64,000 bases of DNA, from positions 1,248,001-1,312,000 of the forward strand of contig NZ_CP157522.1 of the NCBI RefSeq assembly GCF_049075655.1. Direction: 5' to 3'. Both the position numbers and the translations under genes were made by a program. The stretch comes from Methanothermococcus sp. Ax23 (GTDB taxonomy: Archaea; AGJL01; Methanococci; Methanococcales; Methanococcaceae). This document shows, piece after piece, positions 11,615 through 61,833 of the stretch (position 1 is the stretch's first letter; each line of letters starts with the position of its first letter). A model generated the notes under the pieces. The model saw only the letters and a list, made by a program, of their open reading frames with translations, had not been told where the DNA came from and did no database searches.

Positions 11615-11809
11615 ATAAATATAGTTCATTAATTTAGGTTCCAACCGACACGAGCGATAGCGAGTGGAGGTTGGATTTCCGAATGAAATGAGGAAATCGT
11701 ATAAATCCACAAAGTGGATTTTGAGATTTTGGGTAGCATCCTTTTTTAAAGGATGCATGCAAAGGAAATAGAACATAGGAAGGAAATAGGATTACCTGTT
11801 CCTTATTAA
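11615..11809. repeat. hairpin array followed by a 51-bp duplicate of the frcB 3' end
   Basis: 11759-11809 matches 11564-11614 at 48/51; several short inverted repeats in between. Confidence 0.85.
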
Positions 11810-11834
11810 CTATTTTTATTCTTTGAAAAAATAG

Positions 11835-12404
11835 CTAACCTTCATTTCGTTCAGTGATTAAATCTAAAAATCCCCTTCCTATTAAATGAGATATTCTTAA
11901 ACATTCTGGAATTTTGCTTTTTAATCTTGTTTTTTTAATTATTAAATTAAGGAGCTCCCTCTTAATACCGACATATTGAACATATATTCCTTCAATATTT
12001 TCAGGCTCTGGAAATGATTTTAAAAGAGAGATTCTTTCTTCATAATCATCAAAATGTTTTTTTAACGCATCCATCATTTTTTGACGGTTTGGCATCCTAT
12101 CTATAACTGCAACCACGGGAATCCCTGTTTTCTCATTTACTTCATAGAGATTTGTTATATTAAACCCCCCAAATGTAACGCCGTCCAAAAATATAACATT
12201 TATTTTTGTTTTATGTTTCCCCATGACCATTTCAATAATCTTTTCCGTTGAGTCCATTCCATCCCGTTTTATCCTCTTAAAATAAATGCCGTCTATTATT
12301 CTATTTCCTCGGCAGTATGTTCCTATTAATATTGCCTCTTTATCATTTTTATCAAATGGTGCATCATCTATTCCGATAACGCCAATTTCATCTTTAATAT
12401 TCAT
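11835..12404 (-). CDS. DUF99/UPF0215 family (endonuclease V-like) protein
   Basis: IGIDDAPF, DGVTFGGFN, IPECLRISHLI. Confidence 0.8.
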   Translation of the reverse strand: MNIKDEIGVIGIDDAPFDKNDKEAILIGTYCRGNRIIDGIYFKRIKRDGMDSTEKIIEMVMGKHKTKINVIFLDGVTFGGFNITNLYEVNEKTGIPVVAVIDRMPNRQKMMDALKKHFDDYEERISLLKSFPEPENIEGIYVQYVGIKRELLNLIIKKTRLKSKIPECLRISHLIGRGFLDLITERNEG

Positions 12405-12448
12405 TATACCACAAATATTACTTTTTTATTTTTTAGCTCTATTTTTAA

Positions 12449-12691
12449 TTATCTTCTTTTAGACAGCAGATAATAAATTATAGCCCCGATTATGCCCAAA
12501 AACCAAACAACCAACAGCCATAGAATTTTTTCAAGAGTGTCCAAATCATCCCTTTTAAGTATATCTATAACAACCAATATAAATACTACAATTCTTATTA
12601 TACCCCACAATCCAAAAAACATGAAACCAAAAAAAGGGAGCTCCGTTATTCCAAAACCATTTCCCATCATATTCATTGGGGAAAACCACAT
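12449..12691 (-). CDS. small membrane protein, PLDc N-terminal-like domain
   Basis: DIL...EKILWLLVV...GAIIYY pattern. Confidence 0.7.
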
Positions 12692-12752
12692 ATTATTTCA
12701 CCTTAAAAAATTAAATTTAAGATTAAAATATAATAAAATATATAATAAAAAT

Positions 12753-13334: not shown

Positions 13335-13370
13335 ATCACCACCCTTTTATTTTATTTTAAAATATTCAAA

Positions 13371-14414: not shown

Positions 14415-14555
14415 ATTCTCACCTATTTTTACCCATATGTGTATAGTCCTAATGTCATTGTATTTAAACCTTCCGATTAATCGATATATTTTAATGTTTT
14501 TTAAATATATTTGGATATTATGATATACATTAAAAAAATAAAAAATAAATAAAAA

Positions 14556-15272: not shown

Positions 15273-15316
15273 GTTATCATCGCATTTATTTTTAGAATTT
15301 TATAAAATAAAGTCAT

Positions 15317-15408
15317 CGTTGCGTAGCAAGCGACCTAAAACCTACGGTTTTAAGTTTTACTCATTTCATTCGTAAATGCAACGAAATCACTTTGTGATTT
15401 CGTCTAAT
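15317..15408 (-). repeat. two tandem double-hairpin micro-elements overlapping the cupin stop
   Basis: minus strand ATTAGACGAAATCACAAAGTGATTTCGTTGC plus hairpin; second unit ends CGCTTGCTACGCAACG, as in the 31248 insert. Confidence 0.8.
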
Positions 15409-15773: not shown

Positions 15774-15891
15774 ATTGCACCAATTCCTTATATTTTTGAT
15801 GTTATTATATTATTTATGAAAAATGAAATTTAAAAATCTTTCTTTCGAGTGGTGTAGTTGGCAGTAGTTATAGCCATACGCTTACATAAAC

Positions 15892-16827: not shown

Positions 16828-18090
16828 ATGAAAACTCTAATTATAGACCCCAAAATATCTGGAATATCTGGTGATATGTTTATATCTGCACTTATTGATT
16901 TAACCGATGATATTGATTTATTAGGGGAGCTCACCTCCACCATCAACAATTTGAAAAACTGCAAAAAATTTGAAGTAGATATTAAGGAAGAAAAAATAAA
17001 CGGTATAGTGGTAAAAAAGCTTTATATGAATATAATTGAAGATAGATTCCACCGCCCAGAAGATTTAAAAGATGCGATTAAGGAAGTTTCTAATAATTTA
17101 AATTTATCTGAAAAAGCAAATAATATAATCTGTAATATCATAGACGATTTAATATATGCCGAAAAAAAGCTCCATAAAACCGACTTCCACCTTCACGAAG
17201 TGGCATCCCTTGATACAGTTTTTGATGTTGTTGGAAGCGTAATGCTTCTTGAAAAAAACGGATTTTTGGACGGAAAAATATACTCCACGCCCCCAGTTCT
17301 TGGCGGTGGATATGTGAGTATGGAACACGGTATTTTATCAGTTCCAGCTCCTGCTACCCTTGAAATATTATGCAAACATGGTATAAAATACTCCAATCCA
17401 CCTTATGCCACCAAATTTGAACATACCACACCAACGGGCATTGCCATACTTTCCAATGTAGTTGATGAAATTGTGGATAACTTTCCCCCTATGACACCCA
17501 TAAAAGTTGGATATGGCGGAGGCTCAAAGATATTAAAAGAAGTTCCAAATATTTTAAGAGTTATTGAAGGAAAAATAAATAAAAACATAGAAAAAAACAT
17601 GGTTGTGCTTGAAACTAATGTGGATGATGTTTCTGGGGAGATTATAGGAAATCTTTTTGAAAAACTACTAAATGAAGGGGCAAAAGAAGTATTTGTTGTA
17701 AATGGTATCGGAAAGAAAAACCGACCCACCAATATTATTTCTGTAATCACAAATTATGCAAAATCTGAAAAACTTGCAAAAATGCTTATGGAAGAAACTG
17801 GAACATTAGGAGTAAGAATAAAAGAAATAGATAGAATAAAGGCAGAACGAATTGAAAAAACCTATTTTATTAATATAAATGGTAAAGAATTTAAATTTAA
17901 TGTGAAAATATCATCTATTGACGATAAAATAATAAATATGAAACCAGAATATGAAGACGCCAAAAAAATAGCAGAGGAGTTAAAAATACCCCTTAGAAAG
18001 GTTTTAAAGATGTTGGATAATGAAATCACCTGTGTAGCAGGTGAGCAACGAAATCATGAAGTGATTTCGTCTAATTTACGAGCGAAGTGA
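16828..18090 (+). CDS. larC: nickel pincer cofactor biosynthesis protein LarC
   Basis: GISGDM, HLHEV, HGILSVPAPA, ETNVDD, KPEYED; last ~20 aa come from a hairpin insert. Confidence 0.88.
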   Translation: MKTLIIDPKISGISGDMFISALIDLTDDIDLLGELTSTINNLKNCKKFEVDIKEEKINGIVVKKLYMNIIEDRFHRPEDLKDAIKEVSNNLNLSEKANNIICNIIDDLIYAEKKLHKTDFHLHEVASLDTVFDVVGSVMLLEKNGFLDGKIYSTPPVLGGGYVSMEHGILSVPAPATLEILCKHGIKYSNPPYATKFEHTTPTGIAILSNVVDEIVDNFPPMTPIKVGYGGGSKILKEVPNILRVIEGKINKNIEKNMVVLETNVDDVSGEIIGNLFEKLLNEGAKEVFVVNGIGKKNRPTNIISVITNYAKSEKLAKMLMEETGTLGVRIKEIDRIKAERIEKTYFININGKEFKFNVKISSIDDKIINMKPEYEDAKKIAEELKIPLRKVLKMLDNEITCVAGEQRNHEVISSNLRAK

Positions 18091-18115
18091 GTAAATAAAC
18101 AAATCATGAGGATTT
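18026..18115. repeat. double-hairpin micro-element(s) at the larC 3' end
   Basis: minus strand ATTAGACGAAATCACTTCATGATTTCGTTGCTCACCTGCTACACAGGTGA (18075-18026), then TTACGAGCGAAGTGAGTAA and ACAAATC-ATGAG-GATTTGT hairpins. Confidence 0.8.
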
Positions 18116-18354
18116 GTCAGCTACCAACGACTAAAGTCGTTGGCTTGCCCTTCCAACTCCCTCAATAATAAGGGCGGAGGACATTAGGCTGGCTGACGGA
18201 CAGCCCAGTATTATTCACCAATAATGCCCTTCCAACCGTATCCACTCTACCGAGCTTCGTGCCTTAGGGCTTATTACAATTTATAGTTTATACAACATAT
18301 AAATTTTTCGGCTCCTCCAACGGCTAAAACCGTTGGCTTCCTGCCGAAGGAGTC
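18116..18354 (-). mobile_element. non-autonomous IS200/IS605-type element (239 bp) with probable stand-alone omegaRNA
   Basis: left: TCAC|GACTCC..GAAG-CCAACGGTTTTAGCCGTTGG; right: CAAG-CCAACGACTTTAGTCGTTGG-TAGCTGAC; both guide/cleavage tetramers fit the IS608 pairing rule; internal BRE-TATA CGAAAAATTTATAT. Confidence 0.8.
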
Positions 18355-18368
18355 GTGAAATTTCCAAA

Positions 18369-23479: not shown

Positions 23480-24526
23480 GAGGTTGTCGAAAAATATTAA
23501 ATTATCAATAACATATAATACATGTTATGAAGGGGAATATAAAAAAGAAAATAGAAAAGAAAAAGACCAATCCTAAGACAAAAGGATACTGGAGAATATA
23601 CGACCTTAGATATAAGAAATACGACCTAAGAACTACTTATACGTTGATTTTATCCATTACAAACATGCTGAATCGTCCTTCTACCGAAGGACGAAAGGTT
23701 GGTAGGGTATCTGCCCTACCCTATAATGAATATGTGGTAGTTCTAATATTAAAACATATCTACAAACTAAGTTTAAGGGATTTAGAGACACTCTCAAATA
23801 CATTACATAACAAACATATTGACCATTCCACATACGGTAAAGCATTTAAACGGATGGATAATGAGTTTCTATCCAATTTACTCACTTTTACATATACGAT
23901 TATAGATAATCTACTAACTCAGCCCTCCAACAAACTATATATGGCAGACTCAACAGGAGTTTCCATAAATAGGTTATACTATGAGTGCATTCACGGAGGG
24001 AAACGTACTAAACGATTGGTGCATGATAAATTGCATGTTCTAGCATCATACTATCCAGAACAAGGATATATTCCAATAATCTCCGCCCGTTGGGGCGGAG
24101 GTTATAGTTCCGATAGTGCCAACCTATTGGAAATGGTTAAACAGATTGATTTTTTAGATAATGAATATCTACTGGCTGATGGAGGATATGATTGCTGTGA
24201 ATTGTTTTAATATTTACTACAACACAATATCACTCCAATAGTTAAAACAAAAGAATTCAAGTGGAAGTATCATATTAGCAAAGTTAGAAAAACCATTAAG
24301 AGCATGTTTAACAAGGATTGGTATCGCCTTCGGGGGATAGTAGAATCCATATTTGGAGGGCTGGAGACTAAAAACAGGTTAAAATTAGATGACAGGTTGG
24401 CGGATAGCAGAGATGTAAAAGCACTATTGCTACTGCGATAGTGCATAACGTATTAACACTAATGAGAGTATTAGTATTAACATATGATACTGAATAAAAT
24501 TACAAATTCAATTATTCGACAACCTC
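23480..24526 (+). mobile_element. DDE insertion sequence (IS5/IS4-like), 1047 bp
   Basis: TIRs GAGGTTGTCGAA(A/T)AAT; 9-bp TSD ATTATTATC at 23471-23479 and 24527-24535. Confidence 0.9.
23527..24441 (+). pseudogene. DDE transposase with in-frame nonsense codon
   Basis: ADSTG and ADGGYD before TAA at 24208-24210; the same frame continues to YRLRGIVESIFG (third catalytic E). Confidence 0.85.
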
Positions 24527-26122: not shown

Positions 26123-27421
26123 ATGATAATAGTGGAAAAAACCGATAAGATAAAAGGAAATATCTATGCCCCTCCTTCAAAATCATACACTCATAGGGCA
26201 GTAATATGTGCATCTCTATCTGATGGAATTTCAGAGATAAAGAATCCGTTAAACAGTGCCGACTGTCTTTCATCAGTTCATGGTGCAAGAATGCTCGGAG
26301 CTCACATAAACACCGAAGATGAAAATAAATGGATTGTGGAAGGAAACAATAACAACCCAAAAACTCCTGACAATATAATCGATATTGGGAACAGCGGAAC
26401 AACCCTAAGGATTTTAACAGGGATTTCATCCCAAATACCAAATGGATATGCCGTATTAACAGGAGATGAATCCATAAGAAAAAGACCTATGCAACCGCTA
26501 CTGGATGCCTTAAAACAGCTCGGTATTGAAGCTTTTTCATCAAAAATGGATGGAACTGCCCCAATTATTGTTAAAAGTGGTGAGATAAAAAATAACATTG
26601 TTAAGATAAGGGGCGATATGAGCTCTCAATTCATCACATCATTAATGATGACATTGCCATTTGCCAAAGATGATTCAAAGATAATTTTAACAACTCCTTT
26701 AAAATCTGCACCATATTTGGACATAACAATCGATGTTCTTAGTAAGTTTGGAATAACCGTTAAACCTTTGGAAGAAGAAAATGAAAAAGGATTTTTTATT
26801 GAAGGAAATCAGAAATACAAACCTTGCAACTACACAGTAGAAGGAGACTATTCATCAGCATCATATCTTGTAGCCGCAGGAGTTCTTTTAAATTCAGAAT
26901 TAACTATAAACAATTTATTTAAGGACTCAAAGCAAGGAGATAAGGAAATAATAAACATAGTTAAAGAAATGGGGGCAGATATTGAAGTTAAAAATGATAA
27001 AGTCATAATCAATGGACCCCATAAACTAAAAGGTATAGATATAGATGTAAAAAATATACCTGATTTAGTGCCAACTATTGCGGTGTTAGGATGCTTTGCG
27101 GAAGGTAAAACCACAATATACAATGGAGAGCATGTTAGATTAAAGGAATGCGACCGACTAAATGCCTGTGCAAAAGAATTAACAAAGATGGGGGCAAAAA
27201 TAACTGAAAAACCTGATGGTCTTGTAATTGAAGGTGTCGGAAAATTAAAAGGTGCAGAACTGGAAACATACCACGACCACAGGCTTGTAATGGCTTTCAC
27301 AATTGCTGGAATGATGGCAGAAGGCAAAACAATAATAAAAGGGGAAGATGCCGTTAAAATATCATTCCCAAACTTCGTGGATGTAATGAAGTCAATTGGA
27401 GCAAATATTACACTGTGTTAA
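26123..27421 (+). CDS. aroA: 3-phosphoshikimate 1-carboxyvinyltransferase
   Basis: PPSKSYTHR, GNSGTT, SSQF, KECDR, DHR. Confidence 0.96.
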   Translation: MIIVEKTDKIKGNIYAPPSKSYTHRAVICASLSDGISEIKNPLNSADCLSSVHGARMLGAHINTEDENKWIVEGNNNNPKTPDNIIDIGNSGTTLRILTGISSQIPNGYAVLTGDESIRKRPMQPLLDALKQLGIEAFSSKMDGTAPIIVKSGEIKNNIVKIRGDMSSQFITSLMMTLPFAKDDSKIILTTPLKSAPYLDITIDVLSKFGITVKPLEEENEKGFFIEGNQKYKPCNYTVEGDYSSASYLVAAGVLLNSELTINNLFKDSKQGDKEIINIVKEMGADIEVKNDKVIINGPHKLKGIDIDVKNIPDLVPTIAVLGCFAEGKTTIYNGEHVRLKECDRLNACAKELTKMGAKITEKPDGLVIEGVGKLKGAELETYHDHRLVMAFTIAGMMAEGKTIIKGEDAVKISFPNFVDVMKSIGANITLC

Positions 27422-27517
27422 ATACATACATTTATTTTAGTTCGTTTTAATTTTTATTTTATATTCCTTTTACATTCATTGTCTTTAAAATTAAATTAAA
27501 ATTAAAGTAGGGATACG

Positions 27518-28549
27518 ATGAATAAAATAAAAGATTTTTTAAATTATTTAAGTGAAAACAACATAAAGAAAGCCATAGTTTTAAAAAAGGAAAATATAAA
27601 TTATTTTTTAGAAAAATATCCCCCAACATTTTCGGTTTTAGTTTTTGATGCAGAGGAAGATAGGGCAGTTTTGAAAGTTCCAAAACTGGAATATAGGGGA
27701 GCTCTAACATATAAAAACAAATACCTTGATATCGAGTTGTTCGAAAAAATTGAAGAGGTATTTAAGGGATGCGATGGTGTTGAGGATTCCCTTCCTTTAA
27801 AATTTTTGAAATATCTTGATAAGAATTATAAACTAATATCCGACAAAATAAGAGAAATGCGAGCAATAAAAAACGATAGGGAAATCGAACTAATCCAAAA
27901 GGCATCTAAAATAAGCGATAAAGCAGTCGAGTATGCAACAGAGTTTATATTAAATTCAGATAAACCAATTACTGAAAATGAGCTCGCCGCAGAGATTGAG
28001 TATATTATGAAAAAAGAAGGTAGTATAAAACCATCCTTTGACACAATAGCAATTTCAGATAAAAAAACAGCACTACCTCACGGAGCTCCTTCTGATGCAG
28101 TAATTAAAAATATACTTCTGATGGATATTGGGGCAACTTATGAAGGTTATTGCTCAGATATTACAAGAACAGTTATTTTAAATCCAGATGAGAGATATAG
28201 GGATATATACAACATTGTTCATAATGCAAAAAATGAAGCAGAACAGTATCTTAAAGAAGGAATTTCAGTAAAGGAGCTCGACTCAATAGCAAGAAAATCC
28301 ATGGGCAAGTATGAAAAATATTTCATTCACTCCTTAGGTCATGGTGTTGGTGTAGAGGTTCATGAAGAACCATCAGTTTCTTCAAAGGTTAAGGAAGATA
28401 TTATTTTAAAAGAAGGTATGGTAATTACAATAGAACCAGGTATTTATTTAGACGATTTTGGAATAAGAATTGAAGATTTATATGTTGTTAAAAAGAATGG
28501 ATTTAAAAAATTGAGTAATGCAAAAATATTAGACGAAATCACTTTGTGA
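27518..28549 (+). CDS. pepQ: Xaa-Pro dipeptidase (M24 family)
   Basis: DIGA, YCSDITRT, HSLGHGVG, TIEPG, RIED. Confidence 0.88.
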   Translation: MNKIKDFLNYLSENNIKKAIVLKKENINYFLEKYPPTFSVLVFDAEEDRAVLKVPKLEYRGALTYKNKYLDIELFEKIEEVFKGCDGVEDSLPLKFLKYLDKNYKLISDKIREMRAIKNDREIELIQKASKISDKAVEYATEFILNSDKPITENELAAEIEYIMKKEGSIKPSFDTIAISDKKTALPHGAPSDAVIKNILLMDIGATYEGYCSDITRTVILNPDERYRDIYNIVHNAKNEAEQYLKEGISVKELDSIARKSMGKYEKYFIHSLGHGVGVEVHEEPSVSSKVKEDIILKEGMVITIEPGIYLDDFGIRIEDLYVVKKNGFKKLSNAKILDEITL

Positions 28550-28575
28550 TTTCGTTGCTCTTCGCTTCGCTCCGA
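28528..28575 (+). repeat. double-hairpin micro-element supplying the pepQ stop
   Basis: ATTAGACGAAATCACTTTGTGATTTCGTTGCTCTTCGCTTCGCTCCGA. Confidence 0.8.
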
Positions 28576-28610
28576 TTAAATATTAATTTTATTTTTTATT
28601 ATTATTTTTA

Positions 28611-29681: not shown

Positions 29682-29796
29682 TTTCTCACCAATTATATTT
29701 AATAATTTATATCAACTTTATATTTTCATAGTGTTTATAATTATAAATTACATGATGATTATATCATAATTATATCATAACATATTTAATATTAAT

Positions 29797-30725: not shown

Positions 30726-30851
30726 ATAATTATATCATAACATATTTAATATTAATCTTTTATTTTATTTAGAGTTAATAATTTAAATAATTTAAACATT
30801 ATACGAGATTTAATATAAAAGAAAATGATGAATATATAAAAAGAATTTTAC

Positions 30852-32360: not shown

Positions 32361-32436
32361 ATAGATTATATATTTAATATATAATAACATATATTGATAA
32401 AAGATAATGACTAAAAATTAGAAAGAGAGTGATTTT

Positions 32437-46245: not shown

Positions 46246-49200
46246 ATGATAAATACGATATACGATATTTTAAAAGAGAATGGCATCACTGAGCTCAGAC
46301 CTCCACAAAAAAAAGTAATCGAAGGAGGGCTATTAAATAAAAATAAAAATTTTTTAATCTGCATACCTACGGCATCGGGGAAAACACTTATTGGTGAGAT
46401 GGCATTTATAAACCATCTTTTAAATGAGAATAAAAATCCCACAAATAAAAAAGGATTGTTCATTGTTCCTTTAAAGGCACTTGCAAATGAGAAATACGAA
46501 GAATTTAAGGAGAAATATGAAAAATACGGTTTAAAAGTAGCATTGTCCATTGGAGATTTTGATGAAAAAGATGAACTAAGCGGATATGATTTAATAATCA
46601 CGACAGCGGAAAAGCTCGATTCACTGATTAGGCACAATATAGGGTGGATAAATGACGTATCTGTTGTAGTTATAGATGAAATCCATTTAATAGGAGATGA
46701 TGGGAGAGGGGGAACCCTTGAAATTCTACTTACAAAACTGAAAAGCAAATACGACACCCAAATAATTGGACTATCTGCCACCATAGGAAATCCCGAAGAG
46801 TTTGCCAAATGGCTAAATGCTGAGCTGGTTATGGACGAGTGGAGACCTGTTGAATTAAGAAAGGGAGTAGGGTATGACGACAAAATCATATTTATTGATG
46901 AGGATGGAAATGTCATAGAGGAATACGTTATTAATGGAACATCTAAAAACAGCATGTTTAATATTGTAGTGGATAGTGTTTTAAAGGACGGCTCATGCCT
47001 GATATTTTGCAATTCAAAGAGAGGGGCAGTTAATGAAGCAAAAAAATTAAATTTGAAAAAATATTTATCAGCTGATGAAGTAGCGGAGCTCCGAAATTTA
47101 AAAGAGGAAGTCCTAATGGCACTTGACCCGCCAACAGAAACCTGCAAAACCCTTGCGGAATGTATTGAAAGGGGTGTAGCATTCCATCATGCAGGTTTAA
47201 CCTACGAACAGCGGAAAATTGTTGAAGATGGATTCAGAAAAAAGCTGATAAAGGTAATTTGTTGCACTCCGACACTCTGTTTAAATGCAAATACTGAGAT
47301 ATTACAAGAAAGTGGGTTTAAAAAGATTACAGAATTGAATAAAAATGAAAAGGTATTTGCATTGTGTGGAAATAAAATAAAACCGGTGGATTGTTGGAAA
47401 GTCCATAAGACCCCGCAACATGAGTATAATATTGTTGTAAAAACAGCAAATGGGCTAAAAATTACCACAACTCCTAATCATTTGTTCTTAGTTAAAAAAG
47501 GAAAAGATACTTGTGAAAAAGAAGCAAAGGATTTAAAAATAGGGGATTATGTGGCTACTACTGATAAAATAGTAGTTGAAGAAAGAGATATCGATTTATC
47601 CTATGGGGACATTTATTTCATTGGATATTTTATAGGGGATGGATATACTGGCGTTATTGAAAAAAATGTATTTAGGGGCAGTCCAGATATTGCATTTAAT
47701 CCAAAATCCTCGCCAAATTTCGACGACTCCAAATTACATAAAAAATACTTCTTAAAGCATAGGGAAATGGAAGGTGTATCTCATTATATATATTCAAAAA
47801 AACTAAGGAAAGTATTCAACAAATTGAACATGCTAACCAAGAATAACAAGAATATTGATACATTTTACAATCTTCCATTGGAAAAATTTTCATACTTTAT
47901 TGCAGGGTTGTTTGATAGTGATGGATACATTAATGCCAATAGAAAGGAAATTGAATTCGATTCAATATCGGAAAATCTAATCAAAAAACTACAATTGGGA
48001 TTATTGAGGTTTGGAATACATAGCACCATTAGAAAAAGAAAAGGAAAAGTTATGAAACTTGACAAAACCTTCGGGTTTTGTAAGTCAGCGAATCCAAAGG
48101 ATTCGCTTCGATCACCAACGAATTATAAAGAATATAAAAGTAGGGACATTTATAAACTAATAATTGGTGATTTTATAAGTGTAAAAAGATTTTATGAAAA
48201 TATTCCACTGAGGCACAAGGAAAAAAGAAGAAAATTGGAGGAAATCGTAAAAAGTAAGGAAATTGCTAAAATGTGGTGTGATTGTGGATTTAGCACTGAT
48301 TTAACTATGTTTAAGCCGAGAACAGAAAGTCAGAGGAACTTGAATAAAAAGCGTATAAACTTGCTTTTTGAACTATTAAATGGGAAAAAATTGATTATGA
48401 ATTACAAGAGCTATTATTCAAAGAGAAAGAATTCTCATTTTGAATTCATAACAAGAGAAAATGTGGGAGGAAATAAGAAAGGAGTATATTATTCCCTAAA
48501 TAATAAAGGAAAGATTTTAATGAATCTTCTTAATAAAAATATAAAAAATAAAGAGAATTTAGAAGAAATGTATGATTTCTTAACAAATCTTGAAAAATGT
48601 CCAATTTGTGGTAAGCCACTCTACAAAGAAATAAGATACAGTTGGAAAAAAGAATATTATGATGAAGATATTTATTGGGATGCAATTAAAGAAATTAAAA
48701 AAATAAAAGTAAATGACAAATATGCTTATGACATAGAACTGCCTGATGATGGGACAAATGACCATTATGTTGTGGCGAATGGATTTATTGTGCATAACTC
48801 TGCGGGACTAAATTTACCTTGTAGAAGGGCAATCGTAAGGGATTTAAAGAGATTTTCCAGCAGAGGTATGGCCCCAATTCCAAAAATGGAAATTCATCAG
48901 TGCATTGGAAGAGCTGGACGGCCAAATTTAGACCCCTATGGTGAAGGAATAATATATGTAAGCAATAGGGAGAACCCTGAAAGCATTGAAAATGCAAAAA
49001 ACTATTTAATTGGAAATGTGGAGGAAATTTACTCAAAACTATCTAATCAGAAGGTTTTAAGAACTCATATACTTGGGTTAATTACCACAGGTGAGGTTAA
49101 AAACAAAAATGATTTAGAGGAATTTATAAAAAATACATTCTATGCTCATCAATATCAAAATACTGAAAAAATTTTGGAAAATATTGATGAAATAACCAAT

Positions 49201-50061
49201 TTTTTAGAGAAAAATGGATTTATACAGTTAAATTATGGTTCAAATGATAATAATAACAATAATAATGTAAAGATGCTCGTATTGGATAACAATTCATTGA
49301 CTGTTAAATCAAGATACGAGGGCGAAAATATATATTATACTATCACACCCCTTGGAAAGAGGGTTTCGGAGCTCTACATAGACCCACTAAGTGCAGAGAT
49401 TATTATAGATGGATTGAAGGAGCTCCATAAAAAAACATTAAATTCAGCAAGTCCAAAAACTATGGATTATTATATTTTTTATATACTATATATAATATCA
49501 AAAACCACCGAAATGCAGCCAGCTTTAAGAGTAAAAAAATTTGAAGAGGAGGATTTAATTTATGAGATGATAAATTTGGATATGGGCGTAGATATGAACG
49601 ATATATCTTTGGAAAATTTAGAATATTTTAAAAATGCCAAAATGTTCTATGATTGGATTAATGAAGTTCCTGAGGAAAAGATTTTGGAGAAATACAACAT
49701 TGAGCCGGGAATTTTACGATACAAGGTAGAACAATCTAAATGGATGATTCATTCTGCAAAAGAAATATTTGATTTGCTTGATATTGAAAATAAATTCATA
49801 AGGGACTGTTTAAATGATTTGGAGATAAGAATAGAATATGGTGCAAAACAGGATATCATAGAACTCCTAAAAATAAAACATATTGGTAGGGTCAGAGCTC
49901 GAACATTATATAATTCAGGTATAAAAAATGTAAGGGATATCGTTAATAACCCTAAAAAAGTCATTAATTTATTGGGGGAAAAAATAACAAAGAAAATTTT
50001 AGAGGAACTGGGTGTGGATGTTAAATTTGGTCAGATGAAACTTTCAATGTATGATATGTGA
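46246..50061 (+). CDS. hel308: Hel308/Ski2-like DEAD/DEAH helicase with intein
   Basis: PTASGKT, DEIH, SAT, FHHAGL, TPTL|SAGLNLP, GRAGRP. Confidence 0.9.
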   Translation: MINTIYDILKENGITELRPPQKKVIEGGLLNKNKNFLICIPTASGKTLIGEMAFINHLLNENKNPTNKKGLFIVPLKALANEKYEEFKEKYEKYGLKVALSIGDFDEKDELSGYDLIITTAEKLDSLIRHNIGWINDVSVVVIDEIHLIGDDGRGGTLEILLTKLKSKYDTQIIGLSATIGNPEEFAKWLNAELVMDEWRPVELRKGVGYDDKIIFIDEDGNVIEEYVINGTSKNSMFNIVVDSVLKDGSCLIFCNSKRGAVNEAKKLNLKKYLSADEVAELRNLKEEVLMALDPPTETCKTLAECIERGVAFHHAGLTYEQRKIVEDGFRKKLIKVICCTPTLCLNANTEILQESGFKKITELNKNEKVFALCGNKIKPVDCWKVHKTPQHEYNIVVKTANGLKITTTPNHLFLVKKGKDTCEKEAKDLKIGDYVATTDKIVVEERDIDLSYGDIYFIGYFIGDGYTGVIEKNVFRGSPDIAFNPKSSPNFDDSKLHKKYFLKHREMEGVSHYIYSKKLRKVFNKLNMLTKNNKNIDTFYNLPLEKFSYFIAGLFDSDGYINANRKEIEFDSISENLIKKLQLGLLRFGIHSTIRKRKGKVMKLDKTFGFCKSANPKDSLRSPTNYKEYKSRDIYKLIIGDFISVKRFYENIPLRHKEKRRKLEEIVKSKEIAKMWCDCGFSTDLTMFKPRTESQRNLNKKRINLLFELLNGKKLIMNYKSYYSKRKNSHFEFITRENVGGNKKGVYYSLNNKGKILMNLLNKNIKNKENLEEMYDFLTNLEKCPICGKPLYKEIRYSWKKEYYDEDIYWDAIKEIKKIKVNDKYAYDIELPDDGTNDHYVVANGFIVHNSAGLNLPCRRAIVRDLKRFSSRGMAPIPKMEIHQCIGRAGRPNLDPYGEGIIYVSNRENPESIENAKNYLIGNVEEIYSKLSNQKVLRTHILGLITTGEVKNKNDLEEFIKNTFYAHQYQNTEKILENIDEITNFLEKNGFIQLNYGSNDNNNNNNVKMLVLDNNSLTVKSRYEGENIYYTITPLGKRVSELYIDPLSAEIIIDGLKELHKKTLNSASPKTMDYYIFYILYIISKTTEMQPALRVKKFEEEDLIYEMINLDMGVDMNDISLENLEYFKNAKMFYDWINEVPEEKILEKYNIEPGILRYKVEQSKWMIHSAKEIFDLLDIENKFIRDCLNDLEIRIEYGAKQDIIELLKIKHIGRVRARTLYNSGIKNVRDIVNNPKKVINLLGEKITKKILEELGVDVKFGQMKLSMYDM
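47278..48798 (+). mobile_element. intein with LAGLIDADG homing endonuclease (507 aa)
   Basis: starts CLNANT; TPNH block B; FIGDG and FIAGLFDSDG; ends VHN followed by S. Confidence 0.93.
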
Positions 50062-52921: not shown

Positions 52922-52978
52922 AAATAAAATAAAAAAATAAAAAATATAATAAGAGAGGTAAAAGCTTTATATTATTAC

Positions 52979-54447
52979 GATAAACCGCCGAGAAAGCCAA
53001 CGATTTTAATCGTTATACAAAACAAGGTTTTGTAAAATCTCTTATGAGATTGGATGAGAGGCGGACATCATTTTTTTTATATGCTCCACTACATAATATA
53101 TGAGTGTAATTAGAATAATAGCATATATATAAATTTGGTGAATTCCATGCAAGTAACCAGAGTGCTGACAATAAACCTAACCAGAAGTTTGAGTAATGAA
53201 CAATTAACAATCATAAACCATTTAACCTACTCGGCATCAAAACTCTGGAATGTATCAAACTACGAAGTAATGCAACGAAACATTAAACCAAATAAAGCAG
53301 ATGTTCAAATGAAAAACAACTTCTGGTTTAAAAATCTTCATTCACAGTCAGCACAGGCAGTATGTCAAAAACTCACAATAGCATGGGATAACTTTTTTAA
53401 ACAACACACTAAAAGACCACGATACCAACCAAAAGATGGACACTTTCCAGTAAAATGGAAAAAACAAGGTTTCAAAATCATAAACAATAAATTAAGATTA
53501 TCATTATCTAAACAAACTAAAAACTATCTCAAAGAAAAGCATGGTATTAAGTCCAAGTATTTATGGGTAGAGTTATCGAAAACTCTACCGCTTGATACCA
53601 TGCAGGTTAAAGAAGTTGAAATAGTTCCACATAAAATCTACGGGATAACTTATTATATGCTTCATTTAATCTATAAGAAACCAGTAATTCAAGAACCTAT
53701 CAAAGAAGGTAATATATTAAGTATTGATTTAGGAATTAAGAATTTAGCAACCGCAGTAATTAATACGGGCAGTGCGATAATCTACGATGGAAGAAGGTTA
53801 ATTTCTAAATTTCGGTGGTTTGCTAAAAGTAAAGGAAAAATCCAATCTACCCTAACAAAGCAAGAGTTAAAATATAATAAACGATTATCCCGCTTAACAG
53901 TAAAGGAGAAAAACTACACTAAGGATTATCTACATAAAATAAGTAAAATGATTATCGATTTTGCAGTAGATAATAAAGTTTCAAGGATTGTAATCGGCGA
54001 GTTAAACAAAGGCATTTCAAGTATTGACATTGGAGATAGGGTTAATCAGCAATTGCATAGAATACCTTTTGGTAGGTTAGTAAGTATGATAATGTATAAA
54101 GCAGAAGAAAAGGGATTAACAGTAGAACAGGTTAATGAATCTTATACTTCTCAAACTTGTAGTAATTGTGGTGTGGTTAAAAAGAGCAATAGGAAGTATA
54201 GGGGTTTGTATGTGTGTAGTGAGTGTGGCATGGTTTTGAATGCAGACATTAACGGGGCTTTGAATATTTTAAAAAAAGTATCGCATAAGGTAGCCCTGAA
54301 TCTCCTAAACGGAGATAGGGGTAGTGGGCTTGGCAACCCATGTAGGGTTAGACCCTGCTAAAATTAGACGAAATCACTTCGTGATTTCGTTGCTCGCTTA
54401 CTACCGTAAGCGAGAACCCCACGATTTTAATCGTGGGAGTATGTCAG
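52979..54447 (+). mobile_element. IS200/IS605-family tnpB element (TTAC target), copy with intact tnpB ORF
   Basis: TTAC|GATAAACC...TCAG ends; 51-bp insert at 54362-54412 in the omegaRNA region. Confidence 0.9.
53147..54361 (+). CDS. tnpB: RNA-guided endonuclease TnpB
   Basis: RuvC SIDLG / IGEL / NADINGA, CxxC-CxxC zinc ribbon; start at ATG behind GGTGA. Confidence 0.92.
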   Translation: MQVTRVLTINLTRSLSNEQLTIINHLTYSASKLWNVSNYEVMQRNIKPNKADVQMKNNFWFKNLHSQSAQAVCQKLTIAWDNFFKQHTKRPRYQPKDGHFPVKWKKQGFKIINNKLRLSLSKQTKNYLKEKHGIKSKYLWVELSKTLPLDTMQVKEVEIVPHKIYGITYYMLHLIYKKPVIQEPIKEGNILSIDLGIKNLATAVINTGSAIIYDGRRLISKFRWFAKSKGKIQSTLTKQELKYNKRLSRLTVKEKNYTKDYLHKISKMIIDFAVDNKVSRIVIGELNKGISSIDIGDRVNQQLHRIPFGRLVSMIMYKAEEKGLTVEQVNESYTSQTCSNCGVVKKSNRKYRGLYVCSECGMVLNADINGALNILKKVSHKVALNLLNGDRGSGLGNPCRVRPC

Positions 54448-55418: not shown

Positions 55419-55454
55419 TTATTCTAAATTTTTCTTATATTTATATTATTTCAA

Positions 55455-58633: not shown

Positions 58634-58659
58634 AATATTCACCGAAAAAAGAAAATTTA

Positions 58660-59124
58660 TTAAATTAATGCTTCTATTAAATCTCCTCTTGTAATTATGC
58701 CTACAAGTTCTCCATTTTTAATTACAGGTAGCCTTTTAATTTTATTTTTAGTCATTACTTCAGCTGCTTCATTTATTGAAGCTTCTGGTGAAATGACAAT
58801 TACATCCTTTGTCATTATATCTTTTACCTTTGTTTTTAATGCCTTTTCAATATCCTCCCTAAATTCTTCTATTTTTAACGTTGTTTTTAAAGGTAGTTCA
58901 ATTAAATCAAAAGGGGATGGCAATACAATATTAAATTTTTCGTCATGGGTTGTAAGAGTTTTTATAATATCACTTTCGGATATAATCCCAACAAGATTTC
59001 TATCATCGTCTATTACAGGAGCTCCGCTAATCTTATGTTCTCTAAATAATTTAATTACATCCCTAATATCGTTATTTTGATTAACAACAATGGGTTTTTT
59101 CATTACAGAATCTACATTAACCAT
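58660..59124 (-). CDS. CBS domain protein
   Basis: two CBS repeats (ISGAPV, IKRLPV). Confidence 0.88.
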   Translation of the reverse strand: MVNVDSVMKKPIVVNQNNDIRDVIKLFREHKISGAPVIDDDRNLVGIISESDIIKTLTTHDEKFNIVLPSPFDLIELPLKTTLKIEEFREDIEKALKTKVKDIMTKDVIVISPEASINEAAEVMTKNKIKRLPVIKNGELVGIITRGDLIEALI

Positions 59125-59244
59125 AAAATCACCAAATGATAATTATAATAATTTTATATTTATAATATAAAAAACTACGATAATATAATAAATTATAGGT
59201 ATAAATATATATGACATTCTTTCAATATAAACCTGGTGAAAATA

Positions 59245-60423
59245 ATGCATATAAGAATTAACAATGGTATCAATGAGTGTGATATTTACTTAATAGGCAC
59301 AGCTCATGTTTCAGGCGAGAGTATAAAGGAAGTTGAAAGAGCCATAACTGACATAGACCCTGATTTAATAGCTGTTGAACTGGATGAGGATAGATTTTTT
59401 GCTATCACAAACGATAATCTCAATAAAGCTAATGGTAAAAATAACATCGATATATTAAAATTAATAAAGGAGGGGAATGTAGGTCTTTTTTTGGTTCATA
59501 CGATTTTAGCAAATTTTCAAAAGGATATTGGGGAGAAGTTTGGTATAAAACCAGGCAGTGAAATGAAAAAGGCAGTGGATTTAGCCATAATATACAATAA
59601 ACCAATATCTCTAATAGATAGGCCCATAAATATTACATTGAAGCGTGCATTAAAAAGCATGAGTTTAAAGGAAAAATTAAGCTTTTTATATGGAATTTTC
59701 GAGGATAAAGACGGCATGGAATTGGATGAAAAATCGTTAAATGAAATGGTGAATAATGCAGAGGATTTAATCCATGTATTAAAAGAAGTATCCCCTTCAA
59801 TATATGAAGTTCTCGTAGATGAAAGGGATAAATTTATGGCAAAAAACATTTTTGAAATTAGCAAAGGGAAAGAAAGAATATTGGTGGTTGTGGGGGCAGG
59901 TCATTTAAAAGGAATAGCCAATTATTTAAAAAAGCTTGAAAAAAATGAAATAGATATAAATTTAAAGGAATTAATGGAGATAAAAAAAGGAAAAAATTAT
60001 TTTAAAATGGTATTCTCAGTAATGATATTGTGTATTATATTATATGGATTTTATTCAATATCCTCAAATCCCGAAGCCCTAAAAAAACTAACTATTGATT
60101 GGATTCTTATAAATGGTAGTTTGTCTGCACTAGGGGCAGTTCTTGCCCGTGGGAAGATTCCATCAATTATTTCGGCATTTCTTGCGGCACCAGTCACATC
60201 TTTGATTCCAGTAATTGGAGCAGGTTATGTTGCAGGATTTGTTGAATTGAAATATAGGGGCATTACAACAGAGGATATCGACGAATTGTTTAAATCCGAT
60301 GATTTAAAAAGGTTAATGAATAACAATGTGATAAGGGTTTTAATGGTTGCAACACTTTCCAGTATTGGAAGTGCCATTGGGACATTTTATTTTGTTCCAG
60401 GATTTTTAGGACATTTGTTTTAA
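59245..60423 (+). CDS. TraB/GumN family protein
   Basis: GTAHVS, VELD, PGSEM, DERD, VVGAGH; C-terminal TMs. Confidence 0.85.
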   Translation: MHIRINNGINECDIYLIGTAHVSGESIKEVERAITDIDPDLIAVELDEDRFFAITNDNLNKANGKNNIDILKLIKEGNVGLFLVHTILANFQKDIGEKFGIKPGSEMKKAVDLAIIYNKPISLIDRPINITLKRALKSMSLKEKLSFLYGIFEDKDGMELDEKSLNEMVNNAEDLIHVLKEVSPSIYEVLVDERDKFMAKNIFEISKGKERILVVVGAGHLKGIANYLKKLEKNEIDINLKELMEIKKGKNYFKMVFSVMILCIILYGFYSISSNPEALKKLTIDWILINGSLSALGAVLARGKIPSIISAFLAAPVTSLIPVIGAGYVAGFVELKYRGITTEDIDELFKSDDLKRLMNNNVIRVLMVATLSSIGSAIGTFYFVPGFLGHLF

Positions 60424-60424
60424 C

Positions 60425-61833
60425 ATATTCTGCGAGAAGTTTGATAAATTCCTTCGGAATTTATAAATGTCTTCGCTACGCTCAGACATCCCCATCCGTA
60501 AGGGTGGGGATGAATCGCAGGCATTATTTATATATGGCATAAGTGGCAACATACTATTTATAAATAATCAAACTGTGATGCCAATGATAAGGACTCATAA
60601 GTTCCGCCTTTATCCTTCAAAGAGTATCCAAATAACAATAGAGGAGCATCTAAATATATGTAGATACCTCTATAACTATCTTTTGGAGCAGAAAACTAAA
60701 AATCCGAAACTAAATAAAATGGATACTCAAAAACTAATCACAGAACATAAGAAGGAGAATCCTGAACTTAAAAAAGTCCATTCGAAAGTCCTTCAAATGG
60801 TAAATAATAAACTTTGGGGGAACCTCAAAGCATTAGGCAAACTAAAACAGAACGGTCATAAGGTAGGTAAATTAAGATTTAAATCATCAAGGAACAGATA
60901 TAAAACATTAGAATACAATCAATCAGGTTTCAAGATTAAGGATAACAAACTTCACCTATCTAAAATAGGTGAAATTCCCATAAAACTACACAGAAACATT
61001 AAAGGGAAGACTAAAAACGTAATCCTAAAAAAAGAACCTACGGGCAAGTGGTTTGCTTTCTTTCAAGTGGAAGAAGAACCTAAACCACTACCTAAAACTA
61101 ACAAGGTTGTAGGTATCGATTTAGGAATCGATGGTTATACCATCGATTCAGATGGTAATAAATTCGAAAATCCTAAATTCATAGATAGAACTTTGGATAA
61201 AATAAAGAGAGTCCAAAAAAACATATCTAGAAAAGTAAAAGGTTCGAACAACTACAAAAAGACCAAACTAAAACTTATCAGGATTTACGATAAACTAAAC
61301 AATCAGAAAAATGATTTTCTACATAAACTATCAAGATATTACATAAATAACTACGATAAAATAATTTTAGAAGACTTAAATATAAAATCGATGGTTGAAA
61401 ATGGAAAATGTAAGACCTTAAACCGTCATATCCTTGACGGTTCTTGGCGTAAATTCATAAATCTACTTCTCTACAAGGCGGAGGGTGCTGGTAGAGAAGT
61501 AATATTAGTAAATCCCCATTATACTTCTAAAAAATGTTCCAACTGCGGGCATGTTGTTAAAGACTTAAAACTTTCAGATAGAATCTTTTTTTGTCCCAAC
61601 TGCGGTTGGAAATCTGACAGGGACTACAATGCGTCCCTAAATATATTAAAGTCAGGGCTGGGAGAGTCCGTTGTGCCTGTTGAGGGGGGACCTCTACTCA
61701 GAGTTATACCTTATATAAAGGTAATCTCTGGGCAAGTATCCCCTATGAGTCAGGAAGCCTTGCCCGAAGGGCGAGGGCTACGAAAACCGAAAGGTTTTCG
61801 TTTAACCCCGTCCGTAAGGGCGGAGTAATTCAC
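60425..61833 (+). mobile_element. second-type IS200/IS605 tnpB element with hairpin inserts in both ends (left boundary approximate)
   Basis: end hairpins CCCCATCCGTAAGGGTGGGG and CCCCGTCCGTAAGGGCGGAG...TCAC; each separated from GAAG by a 48-50 bp insert. Confidence 0.8.
60584..61828 (+). CDS. tnpB: RNA-guided endonuclease TnpB
   Basis: HKFRLYP, GIDLG, ILEDL, CSNC/CPNC, DRDYNAS. Confidence 0.92.
   Translation: MIRTHKFRLYPSKSIQITIEEHLNICRYLYNYLLEQKTKNPKLNKMDTQKLITEHKKENPELKKVHSKVLQMVNNKLWGNLKALGKLKQNGHKVGKLRFKSSRNRYKTLEYNQSGFKIKDNKLHLSKIGEIPIKLHRNIKGKTKNVILKKEPTGKWFAFFQVEEEPKPLPKTNKVVGIDLGIDGYTIDSDGNKFENPKFIDRTLDKIKRVQKNISRKVKGSNNYKKTKLKLIRIYDKLNNQKNDFLHKLSRYYINNYDKIILEDLNIKSMVENGKCKTLNRHILDGSWRKFINLLLYKAEGAGREVILVNPHYTSKKCSNCGHVVKDLKLSDRIFFCPNCGWKSDRDYNASLNILKSGLGESVVPVEGGPLLRVIPYIKVISGQVSPMSQEALPEGRGLRKPKGFRLTPSVRAE

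Follow-up and report, generated by a model that had tools for sequence, protein, structure and literature searches.

Hairpin units at the locus

The window analysed here covers 64,000 nt of Methanothermococcus sp. Ax23 (contig NZ_CP157522.1, positions 1,248,001 to 1,312,000). It contains copies of two tnpB insertion sequences (IS-A and IS-B), a pepQ-like gene, a larC-like gene and a gene for a Hel308-like helicase with an intein. Short hairpin units are found within and beside these genes. They represent a genuine family of small non-coding insertion elements in Methanothermococcus sp. Ax23 and its relatives.

A preliminary description listed 12 units in the window, nine of which belong to the family (Table 1). 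Seven are matched by our covariance models (R1 at 18026, 28528, 31248, 31688, 54362 and 61758; R2 at 48058). The composite at 11638-11760 is loosely related. It lies between 54-bp direct repeats (11564-11617 and 11759-11812) and is missing from the close relative G012. The segments 39569-39617 and 39771-39815 do not belong to the family: they are the mutually pairing inverted ends of a separate element of ~250 bp, which neither model matches.

Table 1. Hairpin units of the window, with build, surroundings and covariance model score.
Position	Strand	Build	Surroundings	Score
11638..11760	+	four-hairpin composite, one stem with a GAATGAAATGA loop; kinship of modules only		no R1 or R2 match
15317..15408	-	four-hairpin long form; outer hairpins fold as in type 1, two more inside
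18020..18076	-	type-1 element	3' end of larC-like gene	R1, 55 bits
28527..28581	+	type-1 first hairpin with TCTTCGCTTCGCTCCGA second module	3' end of pepQ-like gene	R1, 29.6 bits
31248..31294	+	type-1 double hairpin (TTAG-ACGAAAACC/GGTTTTCGT-TGC-TCGCTTGC/GCAAGCGA), 47 nt	tnpB, IS-A site 1	R1, 81 bits
31688..31735	+	type-1 variant (TCAG-GCGAAAACC.., second stem TCACCAAC/GTTGGTGA)	IS-A site 2	R1, 66 bits
48054..48111	+	type-2 double hairpin (CTTG-ACAAAACC..-AAGTC-AGCGAATCC..-TCGA)		R2, 75.6 bits
54362..54412	+	type-1 element	IS-A site 3, between tnpB stop and right-end hairpin	R1, 57 bits
60441..60489	+	49-nt unit, first hairpin and a stem with TCGCTACGCTC loop	directly 5' of IS-B left-end hairpin
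61752..61807	-	type-1-like double hairpin	after the TnpB domain in an extended tnpB ORF, beside IS-B right-end hairpin	R1, 40.8 bits

The three insertions deduced earlier from a comparison of tnpB paralogs are exact (+47, +48 and +51 nt, with the limits given in Table 1 for 31248, 31688 and 54362). At IS-A site 1, the unit causes a frameshift and a TAG stop in tnpB. This insertion is common to seven full-length IS-A copies, and an empty counterpart is found at 53379. The unit at site 2 (net 48 nt) is in frame within tnpB; contigs of other runs lack 50 nt and have GT in place, and these could derive from other IS copies. At site 3, the insertion amounts to 51 nt, or to 50 nt when compared to empty sites with four A. 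Such empty sites occur at 32327, 35262 and elsewhere. The site 3 unit has been copied with IS-A and its short derivatives, with 23 near-identical copies genome-wide. In seven aligned IS-B left ends, units occupy varying positions around the left-end hairpin, while the unit at 61752 is present in all three IS-B copies, so that none of them provides an empty site.

The unit at 28527 substitutes for the final codons of the pepQ-like gene. The site is filled in this genome (G000) and in G003 and is empty in G012, and an identical 50-nt copy of the unit occurs in G031. The unit at 18020 is followed by a further hairpin, a stem with GAGCGAAGTGA loop (18077-18097). It is present in G000 and G003 and is lacking in G012 and G010. 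The architecture of the long form at 15317 recurs on contig C1 of this genome (910364-910464 and 1048245-1048346), and the orthologous place is empty in G012 and G010. The type-2 unit at 48054 lies in the gene for the Hel308-like helicase, in frame within its intein, and codes for LDKTFGFCKSANPKDSLR.

Filled and empty sites

Fourteen pairs of filled and empty sites are documented. The insertions have 46-57 bp, which corrects the range of ~37-54 bp given before, and the boundary slides by 0-2 nt throughout. IS-A sites 1-3 provide pairs with +47, +48 and +50/51 nt. Four loci filled in this genome are empty in G012 (+57, +57, +48 and +49 nt). The pepQ-like gene adds a further pair at its 3' end. 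In G015, an insertion of 49 nt interrupts the left end of an IS that bears tnpA (compared to G024 and G032); in G012, 57 nt are inserted in a transposase gene (compared to Methanothermococcus sp. Ax23). Four insertion events were found in the surroundings of the IS-B left-end hairpin. The clean filled and empty sites of this genome and G012 delimit the smallest unit and give its polarity and likely active strand.

The units insert as DNA at many kinds of sites, spacers as well as insertion sequences and housekeeping genes, without inverted ends or target duplication. The pairs bear out the earlier view of a modular build from hairpins without terminal inverted repeats and with a target duplication of at most a slide of 0-2 nt. 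The combination of terminal inverted repeats and target duplication that is typical of classical MITEs is absent, and the two ends of a unit differ. At the junctions of the pairs examined, no partial unit copies were found; units arrive whole. Among 92 unique flanks, no fixed target word of 4-5 nt was found. The sole conserved flank base is an A at -1 (89 of 92), and this A may belong to the element. A minority of the insertion sites have ATGAA(A/T) on their 5' side. We observed neither excised circles nor donor gaps nor very recent polymorphisms; the runs compared consisted of contigs.

Architecture and folding

A single unit has a fixed polarity and begins with (A)TTAG or CTTG. This start is followed by a perfect hairpin of 8-10 bp with the base ACGAAA...TTTCGT, a linker of 3-5 nt and a second hairpin, the stem of which opens with TC and closes with GA. 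A stem of 5-6 bp with TCGCTNNGCTC loop serves as an alternative second module, and longer forms retain both end hairpins, with additional hairpins in the middle. The tetranucleotide 5' of the first hairpin is conserved as TTAG, TCAG or TTAA. Stems are perfect, and copies also occur within genes. Hairpins far exceed chance expectation on contig C1: perfect hairpins that contain GC number 490, as opposed to 157 in one Markov shuffle, and pairs of adjacent hairpins number 83, as opposed to none.

The stem covariation claimed in the preliminary description is real. Of 1154 stem cells, 97.8% are paired. Both sides have changed at 12 of 17 pairs. Covariation consists almost entirely of Watson-Crick double changes, with 150 cells showing double-sided and nine showing single-sided changes. 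The covariation score was reached by none of 500 shuffles, for an alignment that is model-fitted and consists of related copies. G-T (G-U) pairs are nearly absent from the stems.

About 90% of the loops are GAA/GTA triloops on one strand. Among 68 unique sequences, 50 have two perfect hairpins; in these, the first loop is TTC in 28 and GAA in three cases, and the second is TTC or TAC in 32 and GAA or GTA in four. The loop register fits a triloop only, so that an RNA UUCG tetraloop is not possible. The Watson-Crick double changes and the GAA/GTA triloops on one strand are both more indicative of a DNA fold than of an RNA fold. A single-stranded DNA form, as envisaged earlier, is consistent with the scarcity of G-T pairs and with the preference of GNA triloops for one strand.

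Copy number and distribution

A covariance model scan, as had been proposed, returned R1 matches genome-wide and across Methanococcales. The R1 count in this genome is 85, or 69 when listed beside G013 (54) and G017 (48). Among 41 genomes of relatives, 22 are positive for R1 and seven for R2. R1 matches occur in 13 of 17 genomes from genus g5 (Methanocaldococcus-type), seven genomes from genus g3 have 0-2, and the outgroup has none. G031, which represents a sister family and consists of three contigs, has 15 R1 and two R2 matches, with the same hairpin modules and with three-hairpin composites. Since 36 of 85 R1 matches are within IS-A or IS-B, the high copy number of many units is due to IS hitch-hiking, which multiplies units and moves them between genera. 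Assignment to a known Rfam family, considered a potential objection, found no support: there were no matches at gathering score in the 64-kb window and none at E<=1 on six unit-bearing loci.

Insertions in protein-coding genes

Whole units that stand alone, without an adjacent IS, were found in the genes for a P-type ATPase, a radical SAM protein, pantoate kinase, an M20 hydrolase, MfnD and an acetolactate-synthase-like protein, and in an intein. Units were found in other transposase genes, too. Several of the insertions in housekeeping genes are in frame, and copies in intact ORFs keep the reading frame open. Type-2 units use one and the same frame in all five of their ORF insertions. In two of the housekeeping hosts, the insert interrupts the alignment to the curated family model, leaving one stretch on either side, and is therefore derived. 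Annotation is affected by the units: seven full-length tnpB genes are broken, 3' ends of genes are altered, and 16-19 residues are added to enzymes.

Relation to IS200/IS605 elements

Of 19 genomes with TnpB, 16 carry elements, compared to six of the 22 that lack it. Insertions cluster before, inside and after the IS left-end hairpin, and also at IS-A site 3, where a hairpin lies on either side. Three independent units are located directly 3' of ATGAA(T/A), which itself follows an IS200/605 left-end hairpin. These left-end hairpins are insertion hot spots.

The preliminary description had suggested an enzyme acting in trans, possibly an HUH enzyme, as the mover. Y1 matches, intact or broken, are found in six Methanococcales genomes, and all six have elements. 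However, three high-copy genomes, G000 (98.9% complete), G013 and G017, have no match to the IS200-type Y1 model NF033573, although a highly diverged RAYT might go unnoticed by this single model. It has matches in five of 14 control genomes. An HUH mover is not confirmed by these results, and the element's hairpins do not resemble those at the ends of the Y1-bearing IS of relatives (CACCGCCC..GGGCGGTG), of IS-A or of IS-B.

The units were also compared with IS200/605-derived miniatures. Their ends have no homology to IS-A, IS-B or the tnpA-bearing IS, and the units found there are insertions. The ends of two IS607 serine transposase copies are unrelated to the units as well.

Known relatives

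The assumption that no description of such elements exists is probably wrong. Judging from the published description, the palindromic repeats MJRE1-3 of Methanocaldococcus jannaschii, which have coding potential, were reported in 2005 (Suyama, Lathe, Bork, FEBS Lett 2005; pmid 16182294). By description rather than by sequence, they resemble our units in stemming from the same archaeal order, in being palindromic and repeated, and in having some in-frame copies in genes. There are reportedly 141 MJRE copies, mostly extragenic and with few in frame inside protein genes. Their mean length is said to be ~100 bp, in contrast to the 46-57 bp of our units. As expected for repeats of this type, 13 of the 17 genomes from genus g5 have R1 matches, and in-frame ORF copies occur in this genome.

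Rickettsia palindromic elements (RPEs) are a bacterial case (reported by Ogata et al. 2000). They differ from the archaeal units in host domain, in their greater length and in their unrelated sequence. RPEs are palindromic selfish DNA of ~100-150 bp, and their in-frame insertion into housekeeping genes gives the proteins an additional peptide. By description, MJRE and RPEs appear to be the closest families. To our knowledge, the mechanism mobilising them has been open for about twenty years. This question becomes testable with short oligonucleotides and an element-free Methanococcus host.

REP hairpins carry GTAG or CGTC tetranucleotide tags (PMC3733652). The units share with REPs and REPINs the short GC-rich hairpins, a tetranucleotide 5' of the stem (here TTAG), composites and a presumed activity as single-stranded DNA. 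The likeness in the tetranucleotide is partial, since REPs are imperfect extragenic palindromes and the stems of the units are perfect. They also differ from the REP/RAYT system in that no Y1 gene was found in this genome and that they occur in genes, too. While a REPIN is an inverted pair of one hairpin, a unit consists of two different adjacent hairpins. With IS200/IS605, the units share the lack of inverted ends and of target duplication, unlike end hairpins, strand polarity and co-occurrence. However, the units are far smaller and have no known parent element, their ends are non-homologous in the copies examined, and no fixed target word was found for them, whereas IS608-type elements have a defined target of 4-5 nt. 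The hairpins of the units come within 0-4 nt of the element termini, a geometry that differs from that of IS608.

Proposed mechanism and alternatives

We consider it probable that the units are mobile DNA palindromes, whichever enzyme is involved. Their active form would be a folded single strand, namely the one with GAA or GTA loops, and an enzyme supplied in trans would excise or copy it and paste it elsewhere. The likeliest single candidate for this enzyme, though a tentative one, is a Y1 HUH transposase, either REP-associated or of IS200/IS605 type, that is now absent from this genome. A dedicated non-Y1 nuclease or recombinase, encoded by the host or linked to an IS, may instead act on hairpins and prefer sites next to other hairpins. 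We regard this as rather doubtful. It would agree with the high copy numbers in three genomes without a Y1 match, with the dissimilarity between element hairpins and cognate IS200/605 hairpins, and with the clustering around the IS left-end hairpin and at IS-A site 3. It would also agree with the tandem and composite arrays of units, and with the recurrence of identical units across families of Methanococcales, at sites that are not related. However, no candidate gene was found, IS607 with its unrelated ends being no help, and insertion sites in coding regions have no obvious neighbouring hairpin. Moreover, the short derivatives of IS-A also became numerous in this genome, which has no Y1 gene, and this makes past Y1 activity plausible. 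In a bolder and equally doubtful version of the mobile palindrome, the units would be the smallest self-contained mobile DNA described from archaea and a new system for the insertion of hairpin DNA. Moving as folded single strands, by an enzyme other than a canonical IS200/605 transposase and absent from the three high-copy genomes, they would home beside hairpins, colonise and inactivate tnpB insertion sequences, spread between genera in them and add peptides to housekeeping proteins.

Transposition might also be dispensable. Templated repair, snap-back synthesis or gene conversion could place units into breaks or stalled forks, with the stable hairpins helping. The absence of target duplication and the junction overlap of 0-2 nt would be consistent with this. 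So would the loop inversion between copies with the same stem (e.g., 66271 versus 130893 and 1121825 versus 1134599) and the second module, which is not the same in orthologous copies from G000 and G003. Single-sided stem changes are nearly absent, a pattern that templating of one arm by the other would produce. Nevertheless, we judge repair to be unlikely, given the same two ends in 14 independent events, the A at -1, the fixed polarity, the strong strand bias of the loops and the arrival of whole units without partial junction copies. Selection on RNA would apply if the units were functional modules, such as protein-binding hairpins, stabilisers or terminators, or parts of the TnpB guide RNA. 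The units at 54362 and 61752 are located at the 3' end of tnpB, where the guide RNA region is presumably to be found. One metatranscriptome contig spans part of the 28528 unit, but contigs cannot give RNA ends or levels. The lack of Rfam matches, the near absence of G-U pairs and the DNA-type GNA triloops on the strand opposite to sense copies make this explanation very improbable, as does the presence of units in both orientations, inside ORFs and at frame-breaking positions. It is hardly credible, finally, that the units are not independent elements but fragments of IS200/605 ends and of the short derivatives, even though many R1 matches fall within IS-A or IS-B and more units reside in other transposase genes: empty IS copies exist for every IS-A site, and the stand-alone units in genes contradict this.

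Definition and Census of the Double-Hairpin Units

The double-hairpin units of Methanothermococcus sp. Ax23 (G000) form a genuine, well-defined family of mobile DNA palindromes of very small size, most likely of the kind represented by MJRE (palindromic repeats of Methanocaldococcus jannaschii) and RPE (Rickettsia palindromic elements). Some details are new: the architecture (a minimal two-hairpin unit and its exact insertion sites), a structural signature of the DNA type, the hitch-hiking of units in insertion sequences with inactivation of tnpB, and hot spots at the left-end hairpins of IS200/605 elements.

The G000 genome (1.67 Mb, 32% G+C) consists of two contigs, C1 and C2; the window spans C1:1248001-1312000. 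The units named in the preliminary description fold as two adjacent perfect hairpins. Compared with one first-order Markov shuffle, contig C1 has 1724 versus 1151 perfect hairpins (stem of at least 7, loop of 3-7), 490 versus 157 hairpins with a stem G+C of at least 0.3, and 83 versus 0 adjacent hairpin pairs (gap of at most 8). The list of adjacent pairs yields two main types. Type 1 reads (A)TTAG-ACGAAA[2-4 variable]-triloop-[complement]TTTCGT-TGC-TC[G/A]...[C/T]GA, and type 2 reads CTTG-AC[G/A]AAA..-AAGTC-AGCGAATCC..GGATTCGCT-TCGA. A strict regular expression retrieves 49 loci, and an nhmmer search yields 116 hits, of which 59 have E<0.001.

Because MAFFT is blind to structure, a plain MAFFT alignment analyzed with RNAalifold recovered only 6 pairs. 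A search of Rfam gave no match. Therefore, covariance models with hand-written structures were built for type 1 (R1; 8 seed sequences, 17 pairs) and type 2 (R2; 7 seeds). In G000, R1 has 85 matches (E<=0.01) and R2 has 14 (E<=1e-4); matches also occur in the genomes of relatives. Nine of the twelve stretches originally assigned to the family belong to it (see table). The other three are a relative that shares a single module and the two ends of a separate element.

Features of the units, their host elements and neighboring repeats in G000 (window positions, unless contig C1 is named)
Feature	Position	Size	Remarks
Units matched by R1 or R2	18026, 28528, 31248, 31688, 48058, 54362, 61758		
Unit, long form	15317-15408		type-1 hairpins at both ends, two more between; architecture recurs at two other loci
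Unit adjoining IS hairpin	60440-60489	49 nt	inserted
Module relative only	11638-11760		one module in common with the family; 54-bp direct repeats on either side
Hairpin composite	11618-11758	~140 bp	flanked by the 54-bp duplication
Direct repeat	11564-11617 and 11759-11812	54 bp	93% identical
Separate element	39569-39815	~250 bp	~45-bp imperfect inverted ends (39569-39617, 39771-39815), an AAAATCC..GGATTTT hairpin in each
Insertion after the 18026 unit	18116-18367	~250 bp	IS200/605-style hairpins (CCAACGAC..GTCGTTGG)
Second double-hairpin repeat	23673-23720 (C1:1271673-1271720)		within ORF 23527-24210
Hel308-like helicase gene	46246-50061		intein at about residues 345-855, type-2 unit within
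IS-A	52966-54447		TnpB of 408 aa
IS-B	60490-61835		
IS-A site 1		+47 nt	2-nt slide; frameshift and TAG; 7 full-length copies
IS-A site 2		+48 nt net	in frame; 3 copies
IS-A site 3		+50/51 nt	between tnpB stop and right-end hairpin; 23 copies, mainly short derivatives
IS-A tnpB with frame-breaking unit	C1:130893, 894117, 1075486, 1125379, 1279253 (window 31253), 1499289, 1504659	47 nt	
IS-A tnpB without this unit	53135-54361; C1:431474-432786		at least these two
Unit in B12/radical-SAM gene	C1:313974	+57 nt	G012 empty
Unit in P-type ATPase gene	C1:1121799	+57 nt	G012 empty
Unit in pantoate kinase gene	C1:1064237	+48 nt	G012 empty
Unit at 3' end of a gene	C1:475884	+49 nt	G012 empty
IS607-type element pair	C1:46658-48671 and C1:1510565-1512578		serine transposase and TnpB; 97% identical; TAG within one transposase gene

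Filled and Empty Sites

The window contains two tnpB-only elements of the IS200/605 family, IS-A and IS-B. G000 has roughly 10 full-length copies of IS-A and some 30 short ones, and their comparison reveals three unit sites. The tnpB gene broken by the 47-nt unit has nonetheless been copied many times. Copying of insertion sequences explains the number of 36 of the 85 R1 matches (23 + 7 + 3, plus 3 in IS-B). The left-end hairpin of IS-B has units at several positions: ahead of the hairpin in the window copy, within it at 199585 and after ATGAAT at 336375. At the same hairpin, three short copies have a unit after ATGAAA and a fourth has none.

The whole main contig of the related genome G012, whose genes are ~87% identical to those of G000, was also compared. 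G012 has only 4 R1 matches, and it has clean empty sites for four G000 loci. The 28528 unit is present in G000 and G003 (another related genome) and missing from G012; the 18026 unit is present in the same two genomes and missing from G012 and G010. In the reverse case, a transposase gene of G012 carries a +57 nt type-2 unit in seven copies, and the G000 copies of the gene do not have it. In the left end of a tnpA-bearing IS200/605 element of G015, ATGAAT is followed by a +49 nt unit, which is not found in G024 and G032. For spacer loci, clean empty sites are often out of reach, because spacers of ~87% identity fail to align.

Orthologous loci thus differ in unit content, and the proposal that the units are insertions devoid of terminal inverted repeats holds for the pairs from IS copies, G012 and G015. 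None of these filled/empty pairs has inverted ends or a duplication, and the slide is 0-2 nt. Among the upstream flanks of 92 unique copies, 89 have an A at position -1, and no longer target word was detected. A target duplication of TTAG or TAG was considered and rejected: it fits three loci but is off by one base at IS-A site 1 and fails wholly at site 3.

Units within Genes

Stop-free frames of at least 150 aa run through 11 unit sites in G000. Housekeeping hosts are an acetolactate-synthase-like protein, MfnD, a radical-SAM protein, an ATPase, an M20 hydrolase and pantoate kinase; other hosts are the Hel308 intein in the window, an IS5-like transposase and two TnpB genes. Type-2 units are read in one orientation and frame in all four ORF cases of G000 (..LD[K/E]..F[C/R]KSANP[K/S]DSLR), and the insert in the G012 transposase is read likewise. 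In the radical-SAM protein and the M20 hydrolase, the alignment to the curated family model is split in two by the insert, which is therefore the derived state. Since the type-2 unit of the Hel308-like helicase lies within the intein, protein splicing would take it out of the mature enzyme.

Structural Signature

Covariation was evaluated in 75 R1 matches (72 distinct) from 14 genomes. In this R1-fitted alignment, which leans to the model and consists of related copies, standard pairs make up 97.8% of 1154 cells, 12 of the 17 pairs vary on both sides, and 150 cells are changed on both sides versus 9 on one side. None of 500 shuffles reached the observed score, and pairing falls to 36-45% when the partners are slid. 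The earlier claim that the stems vary while remaining paired is thereby corroborated.

G-T pairs are almost absent from the stems. On the strand carrying TTAG, the first loop is TTC in 28 cases versus GAA in 3, and the second is TTC or TAC in 32 versus GAA or GTA in 4 (counts from the 50 unique sequences, out of 68, in which both hairpins are perfect). Therefore, the opposite strand bears C-GAA-G or C-GTA-G triloops. An alternative second module has, on the strand opposite TTAG, the order stem, GA, GCGAAGC-like, GA, stem. In DNA, GNA triloops and the GCGAAGC hairpin have unusual stability. On sequence grounds, the scarcity of G-T pairs and the strand-biased loops argue for a structure kept as DNA rather than RNA. 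With these two features and the blank Rfam search, the alternative that the units are RNA elements was rejected; the stem register rules out the C(UUCG)G tetraloop of RNA. Metatranscriptome contigs cover the region 27000-34000 in part, with a single chimeric joint, located at the 28528 unit, and in the covered part no RNA-specific skipping of the tnpB inserts is seen. Skips of 47 and 50 nt are confined to runs whose kind is not stated, and other IS copies could yield them.

Some copies have the same stem with inverted loops, and the second module differs between orthologous units of G000 and G003. Judged from such comparisons, both features suggest that units may exchange sequence between copies.

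Distribution

R1 matched 22 of the 41 related genomes (E<=0.001), with high counts in G000 (69), G013 (54), G015 (48), G017 (48), G003 (35) and G010 (24). In a genus of the sister family (g5), 13 of 17 genomes have 1-14 matches apiece; in another genus (g3), one of seven genomes has 2, and the outgroup genome has none. R2 matched 7 of the 41 genomes (G013 58, G000 14, G012 10). The exact type-1 pattern occurs in 34 stretches of named genome records, a scan that is incomplete, having missed genomes with exact matches by the R1 survey. Four stretches are in records with Methanococcales titles (the titles with the pattern are Methanothermococcus, Methanocaldococcus and Methanocaldococcaceae). In the remaining 30 stretches, the hits are single and scattered over unrelated organisms; their number is close to the chance expectation (~39). 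A phylum-wide search again returned the same 40 genomes, and no unit match was obtained in plasmid and phage collections.

The unit of IS-A site 1 (49 nt) recurs twice without change, in G017 (within an integrase-type transposase gene) and in G034. The 3' flank is the same, which indicates travel inside an insertion sequence. The 28528 unit (50 nt) is identical to two copies in G031 that have different flanks. Unit orientation is clustered on contig C1 (14 runs versus ~21 expected for 40 independent loci); for example, all eight loci at 0.58-1.04 Mb are on the minus strand.

In G015 (L166, L170), a composite of ~150 nt combines two different double-hairpin units with a fifth hairpin; it is repeated on several contigs and adjoins a transposase gene fragment. 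The second contig of G000, C2 (7732 bp), is plasmid-like and carries no unit; neither of its two large ORFs (570 and 668 aa) is matched meaningfully in NCBIfam.

Candidate Mobilizing Enzymes and Related Systems

An HUH enzyme, suspected in the preliminary description, would be the likeliest single candidate for moving the units, albeit with well below an even chance of being the right one. All six Methanococcales genomes with any trace of Y1 (the HUH transposase of the IS200/605 kind) have units. Units are also present in 16 of 19 TnpB-positive versus 6 of 22 TnpB-negative genomes, which are kin rather than independent and in which some units sit inside insertion sequences. However, the IS200-type Y1 model has no match in G000, while control genomes do match, and none in G013 and G017. 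Among the 41 genomes, Y1 is intact only in G015, G024, G032 and the outgroup, broken in G010 and G029, and a remnant in G003. Where an insertion sequence does bear Y1, its cognate hairpins are unlike those of the units. Short derivatives of IS-A have multiplied in G000 in the absence of a Y1 gene, so that Y1 activity may simply have been present formerly and then lost. Two rivals to an HUH enzyme are live, namely movement by an unknown enzyme and enzyme-free templated insertion.

The serine transposase of IS607 was rejected as a mover: G000 has two copies, and the ends of this element bear no relation to the units.

Among known systems, MJRE1-3 of M. jannaschii come nearest by description. Reportedly, 141 copies total 14.3 kb, and three MJRE2 copies lie in frame in genes. 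The names of the MJRE elements were not found in open-access papers. In G031, a genome of the sister family, the same modules are joined as three-hairpin composites; thus, MJRE, known here by description only, and the units probably form one superfamily. Like the units, RPE are palindromic inserts in frame. REP/RAYT systems (RAYT being the REP-associated Y1 transposase) and IS200/605 elements share with the units a hairpin-plus-tag logic. G000 differs from REP/RAYT systems in its negative Y1 gene search, and the ends of IS200/605 have no homology to the unit hairpins. In the passages covered, the RepRanger paper counts generic palindromes in two Methanocaldococcus genomes and nothing more. PMC3733652 and PMC3184786 make no mention of these archaea, and further literature searches gave nothing relevant to the units.

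Neighboring Repeats

The 54-bp direct repeat next to the module relative is the duplicated 3' end of an frhB-like gene. G012 has neither the hairpin composite nor the duplication, which is too long to resemble the other insertions. The ~250-bp element with inverted ends is not part of the double-hairpin family; BLAST returned just six short partial matches elsewhere in G000. The insertion that follows the 18026 unit is missing at the corresponding place in G003, G012 and G010 and probably represents a further short derivative of an IS. The second double-hairpin repeat, with TCGTCCTTC..GAAGGACGA and then GGTAGGG..CCCTACC, is unrelated to the units; it is present in six to seven copies with conserved flanks.
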